In this document: piece by piece, positions 47,858 through 58,217 of the stretch
How the letters are laid out: each line of letters starts with the position of its first letter
Numbering within the stretch: the stretch's first letter is position 1
Assembly (NCBI GenBank): GCA_963790205.1
Contig: CAWBNQ010000005.1
Span: 149,056-213,055, forward strand
Source: Nitrospirota bacterium
Lineage (GTDB): Bacteria > Nitrospirota > UBA9217
Direction of reading: 5' to 3'
Length of the DNA: 64,000 nucleotides
Notes under the pieces: model-generated
What the model saw: only the letters and a program-made list of their open reading frames with translations
The model's database searches: none
What the model was told of the DNA's origin: nothing
Position numbers and translations under genes: made by a program

Positions 47858-49216
47858 CTAATTCGCTGTTGCCCCGCCGTACCGCTGATTGTAGAACTTC
47901 TGGATATTCTCGAGCTGTTCCTTGCTGATGCCCTTGATATACCAGTCATGCCGCTCATTGGGCTCAATGTATTTCTTGGTAATCTCGGCGTAGAGCTCCG
48001 GACCGGCCGCTTCCTTCACCTGGGGCAGGAACTCCGTATAAAAGTTCTTGGCCACCTCGTAGATGCCGTGCCACCAGGCATAATCCGGGCCCATCATGGC
48101 CGCGCCGTGACGCGCGCGCCTGCCTTCATGGTGCCACAACTCAAAATAGGTCCACTCCAGCTTGTTCGAATAATCATTCGGCTTGAGTTTTCCTTTGTCG
48201 ATCAGTTCCTGCCGGATCGCGGTGGCCGGTATTGCGAACTTGTCATTGTAGAAGTTCACAAAGTTGTCGAACTGATAATAGAAGGCGTCCACAAACGGTG
48301 AAGCATGGCAGCTGTTGCAAACGTCCTTCATGTTCTCACGCCTCTTGTCCGCGTTCTCCAGTTTCTTCGAAACAGGCGGCCGCAAGGTCCAGCTGATCCG
48401 CGCGCCCACGTCGTGCGTAACCGGCTGGTTCGGCGTTGCGCCCATGTGGCAGGTGACGCAGGTCGGCGCGGCGCTGTAGTCCCTGCCCACGACCCACGAG
48501 TCCTTGTGCATATTCATGCGGTCCTTGTTTGCCTCGTAGGCGATACCGTGCTTGGACTCCTGGTAGATCTCGATCTGCGGATGGTCGGGTCCGAGATGGC
48601 ACTTGCCGCAGGTCTCGGGCTCCCGCGCCTGGGCCTTCGAGAAGTTGTGCCGTTGATGACAGGCCGAGCAGGAGCCCTTGGAGCCGTCGGGATTGATCCG
48701 GCCGATGCCGGTGTTGGGCCAGGTGTTTTTGTCGATTTTCCCGTCAGCGCCGACCTTCACGATTCCGCCATGGCACTGGCGGCACCCTACGGTGACCGCC
48801 TCGGGACCGCCGACAACTTCACCGAGGTAATTGTCCAGGGAGTTGAGAACGTCCTGCGCTTTTGCATGATGGCTCTCGGTCATCTGCTTTTCTTCCTTGG
48901 CATGGCATTTTCCGCAGTCCTTGGGGGATACGATGACGTGGATCGTAAAACCGTTGTGCTCCATCGCGCCGGGGTCGCCCTTCTCAGACTTGTGGCAGGA
49001 AACGCAGTCCACACCCTTTTCTGCGTGTTTGCTCAATCTCCACTCCTGCACGAACGAGGGCGACTGGGCCTCATGACAGCTGATGCATGCCTGGCCTTCC
49101 TTTGAAATTTTTACCGCCGCCTTCCCTTTTGCGGCTTCACCCGGTGTCGTTGAGAGGGTCAGCGCCGCGCCGAACAAGAGTGCCGCCAGAACAATAAACA
49201 CAGCCTTCGTTCTCAT
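47858..49216 (-). CDS. Octaheme c-type cytochrome, HAO/epsilon-Hao-like (putative nitrite/hydroxylamine reductase family)
   Basis: Signal peptide. Eight CxxCH motifs (CISCH, CVSCH, CGKCH, CRQCH, CSACH, CGKCH, CVTCH, CNSCH) in 452 aa. A strong RBS precedes it. Confidence 0.7.
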   Translation of the reverse strand: MRTKAVFIVLAALLFGAALTLSTTPGEAAKGKAAVKISKEGQACISCHEAQSPSFVQEWRLSKHAEKGVDCVSCHKSEKGDPGAMEHNGFTIHVIVSPKDCGKCHAKEEKQMTESHHAKAQDVLNSLDNYLGEVVGGPEAVTVGCRQCHGGIVKVGADGKIDKNTWPNTGIGRINPDGSKGSCSACHQRHNFSKAQAREPETCGKCHLGPDHPQIEIYQESKHGIAYEANKDRMNMHKDSWVVGRDYSAAPTCVTCHMGATPNQPVTHDVGARISWTLRPPVSKKLENADKRRENMKDVCNSCHASPFVDAFYYQFDNFVNFYNDKFAIPATAIRQELIDKGKLKPNDYSNKLEWTYFELWHHEGRRARHGAAMMGPDYAWWHGIYEVAKNFYTEFLPQVKEAAGPELYAEITKKYIEPNERHDWYIKGISKEQLENIQKFYNQRYGGATAN

Positions 49217-49241
49217 CTTTGCCTCCTTTGTTTCCCAGGAT

Positions 49242-49787
49242 TTAGAACCAGTATTCGGGATATTTTCTGTTCTTTGAAAGGTTGTTCACGAGCAGGGCGA
49301 CGATCAAAAGGATGATCGCCCCGCTGCCAGCGGGAACGACAGAGTAGAAATAGCCGAGATTGTGCACCTTGGCCCCGCCTATGACGGCGATCAATGCCGT
49401 TGCGCCGCCGGGCGGGTGGAGCGTTTTGGTGGCGAGCATGGCGACAATGGCGAGCGAAACAGCCATGGCCGCGGCGATCCAGAGCGTGCCGCCGAAGAGC
49501 TGATAGCAGGCGACTCCCACAAGACCCGAGAGCATGTGCCCGCCCACCAGATTTCGCGGCTGCGCGAGGGGGCTCTTGATCGCGCCGTAGATCAGGACTG
49601 CCGAAGCGCCGAAGGAACCGATGAGCAGCGACAGGTCCCTGGGTTCGAAATAGCTGGACGACAGGAACCCGCATATTCCGATGCCGAGCGCGGAACCGAG
49701 CCAGGACCAGGCAAGCTCCCGGATGCCTACGCCCGGCGGGCTCTTCGCACTTCCCTTCATCTTGGAAATATATTCGGCTATGGTCAT
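49242..49787 (-). CDS. HPP-family membrane protein
   Basis: Four TM helices and the family-defining TLHPPGGATAL motif. Confidence 0.85.
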   Translation of the reverse strand: MTIAEYISKMKGSAKSPPGVGIRELAWSWLGSALGIGICGFLSSSYFEPRDLSLLIGSFGASAVLIYGAIKSPLAQPRNLVGGHMLSGLVGVACYQLFGGTLWIAAAMAVSLAIVAMLATKTLHPPGGATALIAVIGGAKVHNLGYFYSVVPAGSGAIILLIVALLVNNLSKNRKYPEYWF

Positions 49788-49878
49788 AGGTTATCAGAAC
49801 AAAGGCGGGGTAGGGAGCATTATCGCCCGCGCCCGGCGGCTTTTGTTCTCCCTCGTTTTTCGCCCCTCGCGAGCGTAT

Positions 49879-50472
49879 TCATGTCTTCCGTTTTTCTCCC
49901 ACGGAACGGATAATGTCTCCCCGGGAGATGATCCCCAGGAGCTTTCCTTCGGGACCAACGACCGGAAGCCTCTTGATGCGGCGCATGTCGAGAACAGCGG
50001 CGACCTCTTTAACGTCCGCGTCCGGCTCCGTGGTTACGGGAGGCGTGCTCATGACATCTGCCACGCGGTCGCCGTCCTTTCTCTTCGGCAGGGACTTTCC
50101 GAGCAGGCGCCGCAGAAGGCTCTTTGGCGTTCGTTCTTTTTTCGCTCCGGCCGGCGAAGGGATATCGGCTTCGGAAATGACGCCGATGACGCGGTCATTT
50201 TCATCCACCACGGGCATACCGCTGATCTTGTGCTCGGACAGGAGCTTCGCCGCTTCATGGACGCTCGTGTCCCCGGTGACACGGAACACCTTGCCGGTCA
50301 TCACGCTCTGGACCGGTATCATCGTGGAGCGGCGCTCCCGCGCGTGGCGGACGGCGAGGACATAGATCTTCATCAGGTCCTCCTCCGTAATGTCCACATA
50401 GGCCTTGAGCTCCACGAGGGCGGCCCGCAGGTCTTCTTCTGAAATTGAAGGACAGGCATTGCAGATTTCCAT
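49879..50472 (-). CDS. CBS-domain pair protein
   Basis: Two CBS motifs (MTGKVFRV...GMPVVDENDRVIGVISEADI and VMSTPPVT...RLPVVGPEGKLLGIISRGDI). I chose the start at ATG 50472, which has a GGAGG five nt upstream. Confidence 0.75.
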   Translation of the reverse strand: MEICNACPSISEEDLRAALVELKAYVDITEEDLMKIYVLAVRHARERRSTMIPVQSVMTGKVFRVTGDTSVHEAAKLLSEHKISGMPVVDENDRVIGVISEADIPSPAGAKKERTPKSLLRRLLGKSLPKRKDGDRVADVMSTPPVTTEPDADVKEVAAVLDMRRIKRLPVVGPEGKLLGIISRGDIIRSVGEKRKT

Positions 50473-50616
50473 AAGCCTCCGGTAAGAACACGGGCGCCAG
50501 AGCGCTGAAACGGCTTCGCGGGACAGCGGGCGCCCGAACGGTCTGTTTCGGAAGATAGTATAACGAAGAACGAAAAGAACCGGTATGACGAAAATCATAC
50601 CGGGCACGGCATCAGA

Positions 50617-51513
50617 TTATTTCTCTTTGTCCTCGGCCCGGGTCACGATCCAGAAGACAAAGCCGATGACGAGGATGGCGGCGATGAGGTAGTAAATGGA
50701 CTCCGGGTTTTCATGTTTCAACGTTGCGATCATGGTCTCCCGGATCATGGTCACGAGGGCCACGCCCACGAACACGCTGATATGGAACTTGCCGCCCTTG
50801 AGGTGGGATATTTCGGTGTTCATGAGTTCGATCATGAGCCAGAGCAACAGCATGGACCCCAGGGCGGAGATGATGCCCCGCTCCACGTCGCCGGAGAAGA
50901 GGTGCAGCACGTCCTGCACGAAGAGCCACACAACGCCCAGCGTGAGGCCGATGAGCGCGACGACGAGCAGGAGGTTGGTGGTCTGGGAGAACCATTCGGA
51001 AAAATTGATCAGTGCGCTCCTTACCTTATAAACGGGCGAAAAGGTCCTTAACTCCTCTTCGAGGTAGGAGGTCGTGATGACGTCGAGGCTGATGTCGAGG
51101 ATCTTGCCGACGGAGATGATCTGGTTGGTCGCCTCCACTTTGTCCGCTTCCTGTTTCTGCAGGAGGCCGATGCAGGCGTTCTTGACGAGGTTGACGGCCC
51201 TGTTCATATAGTGGGTATCAACGTTGTGCTTTACGTGGGCGGAGCCGATGCGGATAAGCTTTTCATAGTACCGGTTGTCGTACTTTCCCGAAAAAAGATC
51301 GATGAACCATTCGCGCTGGGACCCGAAGACGTGCTTTTTCCTCGATTCCTCGGTAAAGAACTGAGCAGCCCCCTTGGTCCCCATGATCCAGAGGCCGAGC
51401 GTGCTCATAATCTCGTCGGCGTGTTCTTCCATGAGCGGCCGCAGGCCCGCGAGACGCTGTTCGTCCTCTTCGGCAAACCGGTAATCGTGCTTGATCTCCC
51501 TGAACGATCTCAT
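50617..51513 (-). CDS. Protoglobin/globin-coupled-sensor-type globin domain fused to a PsiE-like membrane domain
   Basis: The N-terminal 165 aa show the sensor-globin pattern (W..LF.G.YD..Y...R..IG..H). The C-terminal 130 aa have about 4 TM helices resembling the phosphate-starvation-inducible PsiE family. GGAGG RBS. Confidence 0.6.
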   Translation of the reverse strand: MRSFREIKHDYRFAEEDEQRLAGLRPLMEEHADEIMSTLGLWIMGTKGAAQFFTEESRKKHVFGSQREWFIDLFSGKYDNRYYEKLIRIGSAHVKHNVDTHYMNRAVNLVKNACIGLLQKQEADKVEATNQIISVGKILDISLDVITTSYLEEELRTFSPVYKVRSALINFSEWFSQTTNLLLVVALIGLTLGVVWLFVQDVLHLFSGDVERGIISALGSMLLLWLMIELMNTEISHLKGGKFHISVFVGVALVTMIRETMIATLKHENPESIYYLIAAILVIGFVFWIVTRAEDKEK

Positions 51514-51589
51514 TGAGATTATATCCTCCTCTTAATTGTAGCACAGGAAAAAACCGTTCCCCGGGTACTCGGCAGTGCCGGCAGGCCGT

Positions 51590-52681
51590 TCAAAACACGT
51601 TCATTACCGCCGTTCCGTCCGCCACCAGGACTGCTTTTATCGCGTTCGTCGTTATCCCGACGGAAACAAGCCGAAGGTCGCGAATTTCCCCTCTGATGTT
51701 CATGTGCTGGTTTAAATTGCGGTTCAGCGCGCGGGAGAGGAGACCTTTTTCAGCGTCGATCCTGTCCCCGATAAACCACGCTGCCCGGTCCGCGAGACCC
51801 TCCCGAAGCCTGGTGTGCAGCAGCCAGTCGGCGGCTTGTATGAGGACCTGTTTCGTTTCAACCGTATATTCCGGATTTCGCACCATGAAGGACCGCGTCG
51901 TCTCGTCGTATGCCGGCACGCCGGTCAGGTAAACAGTGCCTTTGACCGTCCCTTTGACGCTTACCGCCATGACGATCGAACCGCCGGAGCCATACAGCCT
52001 CACTTTTTCAATGACGACGGTTTCACCCGGCGCGGAATAAGTTCTTCCTTCCAGTTTTTTCGTCAGCTCTTTTCCAAGAAAATCGAAGGACAGCTCGCTC
52101 TCGAGCGCAATATGAAAACCCGTTTCGGGCGGTACAGCGGTCATTGTTATCTCGGGAAGCGATTGCGCGGTCATGGGAACTGCCGTAACCGGAACAATCT
52201 TCGGCTTGAGATCAAATCCCACGACAACCGTCACCATATCGTCCGGCTTCGCCGGAGGTGAAACGTGGACCGCCTGGGGATTGAGCAGGAGAACAAGAGT
52301 ATCCTCCAGCCTGATCGGCGCCTGCAGGGATTCCCAGACCCTGGCTGCTTGTTGCCGCAGATAGCGGTTTTGCGCGAGATTATTATCTTTCTTTGACGCC
52401 TGCCTCCTGAGAAAATCCTGAATTTTCCCCGCGATGACGTTCTCCCGCCCCGTCCCGGCAGGTCCGGTATCTTTCGATAACAACTGGCCAAGATCGTCGA
52501 GGATTGATTTTACTGAAACCGTAATCGGCATGTTAATAGTGGATTTTTCAATGACCGGCTCAGCAATCGGCGTTGCGAAAGCTTCCGGGGCGGGAATGGT
52601 GAAGCGGGCGCACCCGTACATCAATGAACCGAACAAATACAGACCGACCACGGTTAACGTGCGTTTGGTATGGGTGAACAT
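51590..52681 (-). CDS. Putative lipoprotein of unknown function (DUF4403-like?)
   Basis: Signal peptide with a G-C lipobox-like site (LMYGC). 363 aa. I recognised no catalytic motifs. Confidence 0.45.
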   Translation of the reverse strand: MFTHTKRTLTVVGLYLFGSLMYGCARFTIPAPEAFATPIAEPVIEKSTINMPITVSVKSILDDLGQLLSKDTGPAGTGRENVIAGKIQDFLRRQASKKDNNLAQNRYLRQQAARVWESLQAPIRLEDTLVLLLNPQAVHVSPPAKPDDMVTVVVGFDLKPKIVPVTAVPMTAQSLPEITMTAVPPETGFHIALESELSFDFLGKELTKKLEGRTYSAPGETVVIEKVRLYGSGGSIVMAVSVKGTVKGTVYLTGVPAYDETTRSFMVRNPEYTVETKQVLIQAADWLLHTRLREGLADRAAWFIGDRIDAEKGLLSRALNRNLNQHMNIRGEIRDLRLVSVGITTNAIKAVLVADGTAVMNVF

Positions 52682-54427: not shown

Positions 54428-55261
54428 TCACTTCGGCACGTCCCGGAGAATGCTCTTGATATCTCTATTATCGTATTGTTCCCTTCTCCATCGGTACGGC
54501 AGATCGATGATCGTACCCGGCTCCTGTATGACGTACAAAGCGCGCAATGCTTCCGCCAGTACGACCCGCTGCTGCGCTGTTTTGAACGGCTCGCCCAACG
54601 GATGGCCGAAAGGCCATCTCAAAAAAACGGTCCTCGGCGGCCTCACCTTCTCCGAATATTGCCGCACGATCGAGACGCCGATCGTGGGGATCCCTGATTT
54701 TTCAATTTCCCGCTGTATCAATCCCACGGATTGATTGCAGATGCCTCATCCGGGAGTAAGCAGGACGATATCGACGCAGTCGTTTTTCAACGCTCGTGCG
54801 ATCTCGGGCGCGTTCCTATCGACCAGTGTCGGGATGTGCCTGCCTACTATGTGTCCCATGAAACTGTAATGACGGCCTGCGACACGCCCAATGAGCCCTT
54901 CCTGTTCGAATTCCCTCAGTCTTTCCACGGGAAAAACGATGTTGATGTCCTTATCGGCATCGGCATGATCATAGTAATCGTGGGTGATCATCAGGTCCGA
55001 GGCCGGCCTTCCCAGGTCGATGGCCCGATAAGACGGATCGCCCTCGTGGTCTTTCATGTCGAAAGGTTCCTGGTCTTTTTGATGAACCCCCGCCGTTGTC
55101 ACGACCGCGATTGTTGATTCAGAGAGGGCCTTTGTTACCGGGGTCCAGGGAACATCAAGGGATTGCCGCGGATCGTAGGCGGCAATGAATCTCTTTGCGA
55201 GCGAGGGGAAGCGGGTAATAACTTTTGAGATCAGTTTATTTTTTAGTCTGTCGATGCTCAT
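54428..55261 (-). CDS. GrdB/PrdB-family reductase selenoprotein B-like protein, with selenocysteine encoded by in-frame TGA (minus-strand codon at 54746-54748)
   Basis: The two track ORFs (54746..55261 and 54428..54727) are in the same frame and separated only by TGA. Read-through gives ...VDIVLLTPG-U-GICNQSVGLIQREIEKSGIPTIGVSIV, a U-x-x-C redox motif. The flanking sequence parallels the PrdB/GrdB Sec region. A SECIS-like hairpin lies 11 nt downstream. Confidence 0.7.
54717..54735 (-). promoter_or_regulatory. Putative bacterial SECIS hairpin for the GrdB/PrdB-like selenoprotein
   Basis: The mRNA has an AUCAAUCC-GUG-GGAUUGAU stem with 8 perfect base pairs. It starts 11 nt 3' of the UGA, and its apical loop contains G and U. 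Confidence 0.5.
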
Positions 55262-55445
55262 GCGTCATGATTTCCCCTAAGGAACGGTTGAACAGTTGGA
55301 ATATACACTATTTTGGTTTATCTGAAAAGCATACGTTAGCATCCGGGCGGAGCGGCATGGCAAATCCCCTCGACGTTTTCGGCTGGGAGTAAGGTATTGA
55401 ATGCAGCGATGCAAACTGATAAGCGCGGCCACGAGGGGCAATCTA

Positions 55446-55769
55446 TGGCTCTCTCTCCAGGGAATATCCGGTCTTCTTCCACCCCTCGACGCCGCCTGCG
55501 AGGACCTTTACGTTCTTGAATCCTTTCTCGGCATATTCCACTGCCCGACGGGCAGCGCTCGCCTCCTGAGGTCAGGCGCAGTAGAAGATTATCTCTTGTT
55601 CCTTCGGCAGCGAAACGGCCCTGTTCTTAAACTCGCTGAACGAGAGAGCACCTTCGAGGTGCATTCTCTTAAACTTATCCTCGTCGTCATAAGCGCAGAC
55701 AAAAAGGGCCGTCTTGGTCAGGACTTTTTTTCTTGCTTCTTCCGGCGGAATTCTTATCGGCTCGGTCAT
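55446..55769 (-). CDS. Single-domain rhodanese-like sulfurtransferase selenoprotein (TGA-encoded Sec at minus-strand codon 55572-55574)
   Basis: The track ORF stops at TGA right after FYCA. In-frame read-through continues ...UPQEASAARRAVEYAEKGFKNVKVLAGGVEGWKKTGYSLE, a rhodanese C-terminal consensus, to TAG at 55443. The start at ATG 55769 has a GGAGAGGGAAA RBS. A hairpin lies 16 nt after the UGA. Confidence 0.65.
55541..55555 (-). promoter_or_regulatory. Putative SECIS-like hairpin for the rhodanese selenoprotein
   Basis: The mRNA has CUGCCC-GUC-GGGCAG, a 6-bp GC-rich stem, starting 16 nt 3' of the UGA. Confidence 0.35.
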
Positions 55770-55836
55770 TTTCCCTCTCCAATTAAAAAAAGGAATGCAC
55801 GCATTCGCGCGCATTCCCCGGAATCGCGAAAGGTCT

Positions 55837-57156
55837 TTACGCTCTGGCCTTTGCCAGTCTGAAAAAATCAATGAGGAACATCACCACTCCGGCGGCAAAT
55901 CCCCACGCTGATACCCAGAACACGGCGTACCACAGCTTCATATATCCCTGCGTCGTGAGGTAGTCCATGCCGAGCACCCTCTGGAAATAGACCTGGACGA
56001 TGCCGGCGATGGCAAGGGAGAGCGCCATCAGCGCCATAAAGGAGCACATGAACCAGAAGGCCTTGGTCCCGAGCGACTGCCTGAAGGTCGTGAGTCCTTT
56101 TAATTGCGGCATGACGAAATAGATCAGCGTGAGATTCAGCATGGCATAGGCGCCGAAGAATGCGAAATGCCCGTGCGAGGCCGTCACCTGCGTGCCGTGG
56201 GTCCATTGGTTGATCTGCGGGAGCGTATGGGCGAAGCCCCAGACGCCGGCGCCGAAAAAGTGCATGACCGCGCACCCGACCGCCCAGGACAAGGCGACCT
56301 TGTTCGTGATCTCCAGTTTCCGTTCCCGCACCACGCGAAGCGTGTCGATCACCATAAAGAGGATGGGAAGCGGTTCAAAAGCACTGAAGATCCCGCCCCA
56401 CCAGAGCCAGTAGTTCGGCGTGCCGATCCAGTAATAGTGATGCCCCGTGCCCACGATGCCCGTGAACAGCACGAGGCCCACCTCGACATAGAGCCACTTC
56501 TCGACCAGCGCCCGGTCAACGCCCGTTAGTTTCATGAGCATAAAGGCCATGATCGCGCCGGTGACAAGCTCCCATGCTCCTTCCACCCAGAGGTGTATCA
56601 CCCACCACCACCAGAAGTACTGGGTTGCCAGGTTCTTCATGAAGAAAACGCCGAAGAGGAACATGCCCGCGAGCATGACCAAGCCTCCCAGGAGGACCCC
56701 CTGGATCACGGTCCATTTTTTTGTCTTCATCATGGTCATGAAGATGTTGTAGAGAAAGATCAAAGCGACAAGTACGATGCCGAATTTAAGGATTGTCGGC
56801 TGCTCCAGGAAGGGCATGCCCCACGTCCAGCCAAGGAAGTAGCCCACGATGGCCGCGACGCCGATAAGCGCGAACAGGATGAGTTGGAAGTTCGCCAGCT
56901 TCTTGCTGTAGATCTCGGTCTGCGCCTCTTCCGGGACAAGGTAGTACGTCCCTCCCATGAACCCGAAGAGAAGCCAGACCACGAGAAGGTTTATGTGGAT
57001 GGCCCGCGCGGTGTTGAACGGCAGGATATTGATGAGCGGGTCATAGTCCCATACGTACTTGGCGCCCATGATCAGGCCGAAGACGACCTGGAGCCCGAAG
57101 AGCAGCGCCGCGACGATAAAGTAGTTTAACGCGATCTTCTGTGATTCGTATTTCAT
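55837..57156 (-). CDS. norB: Nitric oxide reductase large subunit (heme-copper oxidase superfamily, cNOR NorB-like)
   Basis: 439 aa with 12 TM helices and conserved His ligands (HHYYWIG, THGTQVTASHGHFAFFGAYA) typical of NorB. Confidence 0.85.
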   Translation of the reverse strand: MKYESQKIALNYFIVAALLFGLQVVFGLIMGAKYVWDYDPLINILPFNTARAIHINLLVVWLLFGFMGGTYYLVPEEAQTEIYSKKLANFQLILFALIGVAAIVGYFLGWTWGMPFLEQPTILKFGIVLVALIFLYNIFMTMMKTKKWTVIQGVLLGGLVMLAGMFLFGVFFMKNLATQYFWWWWVIHLWVEGAWELVTGAIMAFMLMKLTGVDRALVEKWLYVEVGLVLFTGIVGTGHHYYWIGTPNYWLWWGGIFSAFEPLPILFMVIDTLRVVRERKLEITNKVALSWAVGCAVMHFFGAGVWGFAHTLPQINQWTHGTQVTASHGHFAFFGAYAMLNLTLIYFVMPQLKGLTTFRQSLGTKAFWFMCSFMALMALSLAIAGIVQVYFQRVLGMDYLTTQGYMKLWYAVFWVSAWGFAAGVVMFLIDFFRLAKARA

Positions 57157-57201
57157 CTCATTCCTCCTTATCGCAGTCCTGCGAGATAGTGCGCAAGGTC
57201 G

Positions 57202-57840
57202 TCAACGTCCTTTTTGGAAAGCCTCGAAAAGCTCCGGCATAATGGACTGAGGGTTGTGCGATTTCGGGTTCCTGAGCTGCGCCTCGATCCATTCGGTGTC
57301 GCGTCTTCTGCCGACCTGGGACAGGTCGGGCCCTACTTTGCCGCCCACGCCGGCGATCATGTGGCATGCGGAGCACCCCTGGGCCTTATAGACCGCCTCG
57401 CCCGGGGTGACGGAGGTCACTGCCGACGCCACCATGGGTTTCGGGGGCCAGTTGTTCGTGTCGATGCCGTTCACCCAGGTGAGGAACGCGACGAGATCGG
57501 CGATCTCTTCGTCCTTGAGACCGAGGTTCGGCATCTTTCTCGCATTCGGCCAGACCTTCTCCGGGTCCTTCAGGAACCTCGCGACCCATTCGTTGTCCCG
57601 GTAGCTCATGACCTTGGTGACGTCGGGGGCGTAGTAGCCGCCGATGCCGAGGATCGTGTGGCAGTCGTTGCAGTTATGCTTCTGCCACACCCACTTGCCC
57701 GCCGCAACCTGTGCGTCCAGCTTTTCTTCGTGCGTTCTCTGCGGCATCTTCACCAGAGAATCATACGTGAGGACAAGAAAGATTATCGCCGATATCGCGG
57801 TGCCCCAGATAAAAATTGCCTTCCCCTGTGCGAGTGTCAT
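57202..57840 (-). CDS. norC: NorC-like cytochrome c subunit of NO reductase with an extra C-terminal mono-heme cytochrome c domain (di-heme)
   Basis: The N-terminal 150 aa align with NorC (TM anchor, CNDCHTILG, IDTNNWPPKP). The C-terminal extension carries a second CSACH motif with a class-I cyt c pattern. I place the start at ATG 57840 (MTLAQ), which has an AGGGAGA RBS. Confidence 0.75.
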   Translation of the reverse strand: MTLAQGKAIFIWGTAISAIIFLVLTYDSLVKMPQRTHEEKLDAQVAAGKWVWQKHNCNDCHTILGIGGYYAPDVTKVMSYRDNEWVARFLKDPEKVWPNARKMPNLGLKDEEIADLVAFLTWVNGIDTNNWPPKPMVASAVTSVTPGEAVYKAQGCSACHMIAGVGGKVGPDLSQVGRRRDTEWIEAQLRNPKSHNPQSIMPELFEAFQKGR

Positions 57841-57920
57841 TGCTTCTCCCTTCTTCAATGATATGATTATCCTGTCCAAGGACTGCAATAAATACTTTTA
57901 CAGGCATTAGGGCTCATGCA

Positions 57921-58079
57921 TCAGACCTTTTCGAACATGTCCTTGCCTGCGCCGCAGACCGGGCATACCCATCCATCGGGTATCTTTTCGAATGGCGTCC
58001 CCGGCGCAATGCCCCCGTCCGGGTCTCCTGTTGCGGGATCATAGATCCAGTCGCATACCGTGCACTTCCACTTGTCCAT
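57921..58079 (-). CDS. Rubredoxin
   Basis: [15 protein letters not shown]...[11 protein letters not shown] is the classic two CxxC(G) rubredoxin knuckles. I place the start at ATG 58079, which has a GGAGG RBS. The track ORF carries a spurious N-terminal extension. Confidence 0.88.
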
Positions 58080-58217
58080 GAAACCTCCGAAAAAAAACAA
58101 TTGATTTCTATATAGATAGATTATGGCCAGTAAAGGCCCAAGCAGGAAATTCAAGGAACGAACAACATCGTAGTATTTCCAACTATAGCACAAGAAATAG
58201 GCAGTTTGTTGGGCGAT

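Follow-up and report, generated by a model that had tools for sequence, protein, structure and literature searches.

The stretch of DNA analysed here, 64,000 nucleotides of contig CAWBNQ010000005.1 from a Nitrospirota bacterium (hereafter the window, meaning the whole stretch at its full length), carries on its minus strand a short gene whose reading frame is interrupted by a TGA. The frame opens at ATG 55769, reads MTEPIRIPPEE...EQEIIFYCA and then meets the TGA at 55574-55572; past this codon the same frame continues as PQEASAARRAVEYAEKGFKNVKVLAGGVEGWKKTGYSLEREP and ends in TAG at 55445-55443. Read through, the product has 108 amino acids, with 42 codons between the UGA at codon 66 and the TAG (Table 1). 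An initial annotation, made from the letters of the sequence, had proposed a single-domain rhodanese with a TGA-encoded selenocysteine (Sec), about 108 residues long and starting at this ATG. When we re-read the frame, everything it had stated about the reading frame, the read-through continuation and the TAG end proved correct. The start also fits, since the homologues share the methionine (M1 is nearly invariant) and a Shine-Dalgarno-like sequence precedes it. As a whole, the locus is very probably best explained as a functional gene whose product is a single-domain rhodanese selenoprotein of 108 residues, and we call it with high confidence, judging from its sequence, a selenoprotein gene with the motif C-x-U.

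Table 1. Coordinates of the rhodanese selenoprotein gene, its elements and the neighbouring features within the window.
Feature	Position	Strand	Remark
Predicted rhodanese selenoprotein coding sequence	55443..55769	-	108 codons including Sec66, then TAG 55445-55443
In-frame UGA, codon 66, almost certainly read as selenocysteine	55572..55574	-	TGA in 85/85 homologous copies
Cys64 codon (TGC), partner in C-x-U	55578..55580	-	TGA in 18/85 homologues (U-x-U)
Cys25 codon in the LFVCAYDDE motif, third conserved cysteine	55695..55697	-	Invariant in the Sec and Cys clades
Shine-Dalgarno-like GGAGAGGG	55773..55780	-	3 nt upstream of ATG 55769; read from the sequence
Hairpin CGCUGCCC-GUC-GGGCAGUG, resembling a bacterial selenocysteine insertion sequence (bSECIS)	55539..55557	-	Comparative evidence
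PrdB/GrdB-family gene, own in-frame TGA 54746-54748, separate from the rhodanese gene	54428..55261	-	TIGR01918, 76.2 bits
Terminator-like hairpin and T-run	55784..55819 (hairpin 55790-55819)	-	13 pairs, 7 of them G-C; between the oxidase stop and the rhodanese ribosome-binding site

The Pfam profile Rhodanese (PF00581), to which the initial annotation had suggested aligning the read-through product, indeed matches across the TGA. Residues 29-99 align with profile positions 21-101 of 102 at 43.3 bits, against a cutoff of 22.2, and the gathering threshold is thereby passed. The fragment of 65 amino acids fails by itself, reaching 14.5 bits. PF00581 needs both halves in one chain, and this fragment is not a rhodanese domain.

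A protein search gave 214 clusters of homologues, and among the 120 best of these 214 nearly all are 63 or 65 amino acids long, cut at a motif codon; one database entry of 65 residues (P0003) has the same sequence as the window fragment. In a scan that took one genome for each species, 225 loci proved to encode relatives. From these, 80 loci were retained for the codon analysis, which covers 85 copies: 82 from the 80 retained loci in other genomes and 3 from same-species contigs. When the read-through product was compared with the genome loci by tblastn, residues 1-105 aligned straight across the stop. Opposite the window TGA, all 85 copies have TGA and never TAA, TAG or a sense codon, while the genuine gene ends of the homologues are TAA (37), TAG (25) and TGA (19). 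In every copy the frame 3' of the TGA stays open for 35-52 further codons. The entropies at codon positions 1, 2 and 3 amount to 0.63, 0.69 and 1.47 downstream of the TGA and to 0.86, 0.60 and 1.57 upstream of it. Because the downstream pattern matches the upstream one, we conclude that the region behind the TGA is translated sequence under purifying selection; G83, G93, W97 and G101, all 3' of the TGA, are invariant. The hosts span at least 7 phyla in total and include Nitrospirota, Thermodesulfobacteriota (Desulfobacterales, Syntrophales), Desulfuromonadales/Geobacter, Brocadiaceae, Acidobacteriota, Verrucomicrobiia and one metagenome-assembled genome labelled Actinomycetota. We thus find a UGA that is kept and never replaced by another stop, followed by a frame that is kept as protein, as is expected of a Sec UGA. 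By this comparison the TGA almost certainly encodes selenocysteine.

The TGA-bearing clade has Sec at position 66 in all of its copies. At position 64, the 85 copies use TGC (44), TGT (23) or TGA (18), and no residue besides Cys and Sec is found there. The U-x-U copies (L008, L011, L015, L017, L031, L033, L037, the second copy of L038, L040, L045, L055, L059, L063, L066, L074, L077, L079 and L083) are scattered over Nitrospirota, Syntrophales, Acidobacteriota, Verrucomicrobiia and Desulfobacterales, which implies repeated exchange of Cys and Sec at position 64. Locus L038 even has one CAU copy and one UGU copy about 1 kb apart. In the U-x-U forms the two TGA codons lie 6 nt apart and are followed by one hairpin, so that one hairpin serves two UGA codons.

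A second protein search, for which a full-length homologue was the query, furnished a clade with Cys in place of Sec. It comprises about 25 clusters, one of them from Thermoguttaceae, with YCACPHDE or YCACPGE and a Cys aligned with the TGA. For L086-L088 we verified TGC or TGT at the site, so that Cys homologues aligned with the Sec position are indeed at hand. V24, C25 and Y27 of the motif LLVCAYDDE do not vary in either clade, Sec or Cys, and Glu69 is nearly invariant in the Sec clade. A few database entries (P0001, P0004-P0006) show Trp at the Sec site. The DNA behind P0001 (WAW) reads TGA GCN TGA, and because these codons are TGA, the Trp residues are an artefact of another genetic code. 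At L084:995-1321 (P0150) the motif is AGC GGG TGG (Ser-Gly-Trp), with a perfect SECIS-like hairpin retained; this looks like a recent decay from Sec to Trp with loss of both redox residues, or like a sequencing or assembly error.

The initial annotation had also described a hairpin, CUGCCC-GUC-GGGCAG, starting 16 nt after the UGA. This hairpin is present, dominates the centroid fold and covaries across the homologues. Its core stem in the window pairs 55551-55555 with 55541-55545, and the apical G-U is found at 55549-55548. For the comparison we used an ungapped alignment of 80 sequences. The register of the hairpin is fixed across this alignment, with columns 32-36 paired with 42-46 and often 2 further pairs, and its distance from the UGA is 14-16 nt in the homologues. 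The apical loop is mostly GGUCR, in which G38 never varies and U39 is conserved to at least 90%. Standard pairs fill 79.2% of the cells of the 8-pair helix, compared with 20.6-54.2% after a shift of the 3' partner by 1-3 columns. Additionally, 48 cells are changed on both sides, versus 23 +/- 4 in shuffled alignments, and none of the 500 shuffles reaches 48. The most informative pair, U33:A45, appears as C:G in 16 sequences and as G:C in one. Since each of the two bases is the synonymous third position of an Ala codon, the encoded SAAG(R/Q)A cannot account for this covariation. RNAalifold recovered the core helix independently. The stem-loop with apical G/U and covariation that a SECIS 3' of a Sec UGA should show is thus present. 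At the gathering threshold, an Rfam scan of the window matched no family.

The Cys-site homologues L086-L088 show no hairpin in the equivalent segment, with folding energies of -1.1, -8.5 and -0.6 kcal/mol; for comparison, the TGG variant of the Sec lineage (L084), which keeps the hairpin, gives -12.5 kcal/mol. L088 still encodes EASAA. Because the Cys forms are without the hairpin although L088 retains this peptide, we conclude that the hairpin goes together with the TGA rather than with the peptide. Like the SECIS of Escherichia coli fdhF, the hairpin is a stem-loop directly 3' of the UGA inside the coding sequence with an apical G-U, within GGUC in most homologues. GGUC is also present in the fdhF apical loop. 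Unlike the fdhF type, our hairpin has a short stem of 5-8 bp with no obvious bulged U, and in the UxU forms it serves two UGAs.

The rhodanese gene is followed, after a gap of 181 nt, by a candidate selenoprotein gene of the PrdB/GrdB family with a TGA of its own (frame ...DIVLLTPG-TGA-GICNQ...). The match to TIGR01918 reaches 76.2 bits against a cutoff of 65.45 and lies below the PrdB equivalog cutoff. A perfect 8-bp hairpin, AUCAAUCC-GUG-GGAUUGAU, stands at 54717-54735, 10 nt after this UGA, and databases hold only a 171-aa N-terminal fragment of the protein. With its TGA and its hairpin, this gene speaks independently, if indirectly, for a decoding of UGA as Sec in this organism. With ARAGORN, no tRNA was detected in the window, nor a tRNA-Sec in 83 homologous loci, a Pfam scan of 10 window open reading frames (ORFs) of SelA- or SelD-like size (1377-38621) found no selenium-metabolism gene, and a literature search on Sec use in Dissulfurispira gave nothing relevant. 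Nine of the 10 scanned ORFs belong to polysaccharide or envelope functions (MBOAT, phosphomannomutase, mannose-1-phosphate guanylyltransferase, Wzx/Wzy-type proteins, glycosyltransferases, acyltransferase), while the tenth is Obg.

CxU rhodanese selenoproteins are already a predicted group, and the window gene is one more member of it, not a new family. Two reviews that list the family cite one and the same early source for it, presumably the study of the prokaryotic selenoproteome from 2004 in which CxU rhodanese selenoproteins were reportedly predicted. These reviews (PMC9312934, PMC13188914) give a CxU rhodanese-related sulfurtransferase selenoprotein, and a UxU form in the delta symbionts of Olavius algarvensis was reported in 2007 (Zhang & Gladyshev, PMC1976440), so that the initial annotation was right in calling the family known but sparsely documented. 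PMC1976440 also describes genomes with multiple rhodanese selenoprotein copies, and its dataset contained no Cys homologues. The UxU form likewise occurs in 18 of our 85 copies; unlike in that dataset, Cys homologues do exist in larger databases. A contig of the Olavius Delta 4 symbiont (L076) carries a clade member with FFYCAU. From this match and from the shared motifs, the Olavius rhodanese selenoproteins and the present clade are probably the same.

Within the known groups, sequence comparison places the window protein in a FYCAU/FYUAU clade that is sister to the NCBIfam family NF041203 (rhodanese_LYCAU) and, by the curated threshold, not a member of it. Both have a single rhodanese domain with Y-C-A-U in the active-site loop and one Sec, which for NF041203 is likewise only predicted. 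The window protein reads FYCAU and its homologues [FL]Y[CU][AG]U, so that the Y-C-A-U of NF041203 is found here as well. In the alignment to this model, window residues 38-106 (the C-terminal 69) fall on profile positions 55-125 of 126. Unlike NF041203, the clade members have about 105 amino acids, a shorter and different N-terminal half (LLVCAYDDE) and FYCAU instead of LYCAU. Because the clade scores below the NF041203 cutoff, annotation pipelines probably leave fragments. Indeed, public databases contain many 63-65-aa 'hypothetical protein' fragments of this rhodanese selenoprotein gene, which NF041203 does not reach, and a dedicated clade model would correct the annotation in at least 225 species-level genomes.

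For a view of the fold we used an AlphaFold2 model of the Cys homologue P0066, built from a 34-sequence alignment (predicted local distance difference test 89.1, predicted template modelling score 0.83). The modelled central strand ends at IIFY and is followed by the six-residue loop CACPHD and then by a helix. With this model, the top Foldseek matches are all rhodaneses (6mxv, Alr3790, BH2092 and GlpE), at query-normalised template modelling (TM) scores of 0.71-0.77. GlpE/PspE (1gmx) resembles the window protein in fold and size (TM-score 0.77 for the Cys-homologue model, profile E-value 2.2e-07), and with GlpE it has in common the alpha/beta rhodanese topology and a nucleophile in the loop after the central strand. 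The loops themselves differ. GlpE has a single Cys in the six-residue loop CYHGNS, whereas the window protein has CAUPQEAS, where a second chalcogen residue is joined by a Pro and a conserved Glu, and its stretch from the first Cys to the GF/GY motif is longer by two residues. With the GlpE model NF001195 (cutoff 102 bits) the window protein reaches 22.5 bits; Glu69 and Pro67 are unusual for the loop C-x-x-G-x-[R/K/S/T], and the alignment registers differ.

The initial annotation had placed the UGA at the catalytic-loop position. The UGA does lie in the active-site loop, but by most alignments and by the AlphaFold model it is the Cys of FYC that takes the canonical catalytic position. Aligned with HMMER to 6mxv, a rhodanese from Francisella, and to BH2092, the window protein has Cys64 on the catalytic Cys and a segment from the loop to GF that is two residues longer than in these proteins. 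A profile alignment to GlpE (1gmx), gapless over residues 1-99, sets residue 66 on GlpE Cys65. Whether Cys64 or Sec66 takes the canonical position thus appears ambiguous from the sequences, and the P0066 model favours Cys64 as the canonical catalytic position with Sec at +2. The initial annotation had itself named a refuting scenario, in which the catalytic Cys is that of FYC and a real stop follows; the first part of this scenario may hold, but the stop is not real.

Gene callers treat the TGA as a genuine stop, which would leave a truncated or decaying rhodanese with a relic frame behind it. The 65 amino acids of P0003 and the length of 63-65 amino acids in nearly all of the 120 best of 214 clusters follow this annotation, and the Sec machinery was not found in the 64-kb window. 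Such a stop is nevertheless scarcely conceivable, given a TGA in 85 of 85 copies over at least 7 phyla while the true ends use all three stops, coding-type constraint downstream with invariant G83, G93, W97 and G101, a 65-aa fragment that is no rhodanese domain, and Cys homologues that read straight through. Just as little credence can be given to a split gene that makes two polypeptides, one of 65 amino acids and one of about 32 amino acids from GTG 55541. A 32-aa ORF with a GTG start does exist at 55443-55541, but the PQEASAARRA between TGA and GTG is conserved as much as the rest, the GTG (alignment columns 46-48) varies in the homologues and has no ribosome-binding site before it, and the PF00581 domain requires both halves in one chain. 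Recoding of the UGA to Trp, Gly or Cys instead of Sec would agree with the database entries that have Trp at the site (P0001, P0004-P0006) and with L084, which truly has TGG. We consider it very improbable, because the Trp codons of P0001 are TGA and stem from another translation table, because neighbouring genes in the window end in ordinary TGA stops (for example the cytochrome c gene, 57202-57204), because Nitrospirota, Desulfobacterota and Acidobacteriota use the standard code, and because the homologues align Cys at the site and the SelB-type hairpin is present only with TGA.

With the UGA read as Sec, there is also a rival on the side of function. Sec66 could itself hold the canonical catalytic position and act as a persulfide carrier as in GlpE/PspE, with Cys64 a mere strand residue. 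The gapless GlpE alignment speaks for this idea, since it sets residue 66 on Cys65 and Ser71 on GlpE Ser70, and so does the presence of Sec at position 66 in every clade copy. However, IIFYC fits the usual hydrophobic strand followed by Cys, the 6mxv and BH2092 alignments put Cys64 on the catalytic Cys, and in the P0066 model, whose strand ends at IIFY, the loop begins at the first Cys. A purely structural strand residue would moreover not be required to be only Cys or Sec, as position 64 is, and in place of the Gly and the basic or hydroxyl residue of sulfurtransferases the loop has a Pro and a nearly invariant Glu. We regard this assignment as unlikely.

The comparison across genomes shows a translated selenoprotein gene that is decoded by way of a SelB-type hairpin. 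The ribosome reaches the UGA at codon 66, and the mRNA hairpin that begins 14-16 nt downstream, with a conserved G-U in its apical loop, would recruit SelB with Sec-tRNA(Sec). Selenocysteine is thereby inserted and translation goes on for 42 codons to the TAG; if selenium or the Sec machinery were missing, only the 65-residue fragment would arise, with half the fold absent. The protein carries the Cys64-Ala-Sec66 pair in the rhodanese active-site loop, together with Glu69 and Cys25. Toward a substrate with a sulfane-sulfur, a persulfide or a disulfide, the selenolate of Sec66 could be the attacking or the leaving group, Cys64 could resolve the adduct to give an intramolecular selenenylsulfide, and a thiol reductant of the thioredoxin type could recycle the pair. 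A redox pair is suggested because position 64 is only Cys or Sec, because, according to the thesis of PMC1794560, it is almost exclusively at redox-active sites that Sec takes the place of Cys, and because the Gly and the basic or hydroxyl residue of thiosulfate sulfurtransferases are replaced in this loop by Pro and Glu. We therefore put forward, tentatively and with some doubt, that the protein may be a CxU redox or sulfur-relay protein and not a classical thiosulfate:cyanide sulfurtransferase.

Cys25 may in addition have a redox role. The Cdc25/Acr2 group of rhodanese-fold phosphatases and arsenate reductases, a weak match in the PDB (1t3k, E-value 0.023), has the rhodanese fold in common with the window protein and an active-site loop longer than that of the sulfurtransferases. 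Unlike Cdc25/Acr2, the window protein is without the HCX5R signature and the loop Arg. In Cdc25, a 'back-door' Cys in the motif DCRY forms a disulfide bond with the catalytic Cys, and the invariant VCAY of the clade (Cys25) presumably lines up with this motif, as judged by eye. One may speculate further that FYCAU/FYUAU is a distinct clade of rhodanese selenoproteins, outside the reach of any curated model, with a relay of three chalcogen residues in which Sec66 attacks, Cys or Sec64 resolves and Cys25 serves as a Cdc25-like back-door Cys, that the protein works as a thioredoxin-coupled persulfide or polysulfide reductase or as a denitrosylase instead of a sulfurtransferase, and that in the Dissulfurispiraceae the gene was recruited to a place beside a NOR-like oxidase and a PrdB-like selenoprotein for sulfur or nitrosative-stress chemistry. 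We hold this larger picture to be quite improbable.

Several points weigh against our interpretation. The 81-nt fold of the window region has an unremarkable energy compared with shuffled sequences (z = -0.53); because the single-sequence folding energy is not significant, we relied on the comparative evidence for the hairpin, and the conserved peptide SAAG(R/Q)A could account for part of the hairpin conservation. The genes selA, selB and selD and a tRNA-Sec were not found within the 64-kb window. The window protein reaches only 58.8 bits with NF041203, against the cutoff of 115. All 64 clade members that we tested have this model as their best NCBIfam match, but their scores are low and no E-value is better than 1.8e-20. 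The alignments disagree over which residue holds the canonical catalytic position, and the proposed chemistry, which we slightly doubt, is drawn from motif logic. Finally, the rhodanese selenoproteins stand as predictions.

What remains of interest is the systematic mis-annotation and the strict retention of Sec beside a position that toggles between Cys and Sec; nothing here is new in kind. Strict Sec at position 66 together with the switching at position 64, in many anaerobic phyla, offers a natural system for the question of Sec versus Cys in the rhodanese loop. The U-x-U members could reveal how a single SECIS can serve two UGA codons at a distance of 6 nt.

The rhodanese gene lies 67 nt downstream of a 439-aa gene of the haem-copper oxidase family (stop 55837), which has a Pfam COX1 match and the motif HLWVEG. 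The naming of this oxidase differs: members of its JGI cluster are called 'nitric oxide reductase subunit B', and NCBI gives 'cbb3-type cytochrome c oxidase subunit I [Dissulfurispiraceae]'. Compared with NCBIfam, the 439-aa oxidase matched no NorB model. The cluster at 55837-58082 on the minus strand consists of a rubredoxin, a dihaem cytochrome c with a FixO-like C-terminal part and the oxidase, the first two lying upstream of the oxidase gene.

The initial annotation had the rhodanese gene co-transcribed with norCB and rubredoxin. This claim is not supported, as the terminator-like hairpin with its T-run stands between the genes and the linkage is conserved in none of the 80 genomes. Because of this hairpin, co-transcription with the oxidase gene is not a given. 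The space between the hairpin and the rhodanese gene appears too short for a promoter, so that expression would come from read-through of the terminator or from a promoter inside the oxidase gene. When 10 window neighbours were compared by tblastn with the 80 loci, no NOR-like, cytochrome c or PrdB-like gene was found within about 6 kb, and the sole neighbour that recurs is a rubredoxin near L046. Clustering of 1170 flanking ORFs gave as its largest cluster a generic histidine kinase, in 13 of the 80 loci, and in a Pfam tally of 127 immediate neighbours no family occurs in more than 7. By gene order, the rhodanese gene would thus not belong to a nor operon. Because the neighbours do not recur, the nor linkage is not a property of the family; it arose either by local recruitment or as an accident of gene order specific to the lineage.

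We also considered a link to arsenic and rejected it. An ArsC-like neighbour (of the low-molecular-weight-phosphatase type, by eye) occurs in 6 loci only, and the lone 'ArsR' name is a fragment artefact: P0083, a 63-aa fragment, carries the NCBI name 'ArsR family transcriptional regulator'. Downstream of the selenoprotein genes, the minus strand at 47858-52681 encodes a multihaem cytochrome c (452 aa), a CBS-domain protein, a protoglobin-PsiE fusion (298 aa) and a DUF4403 protein.

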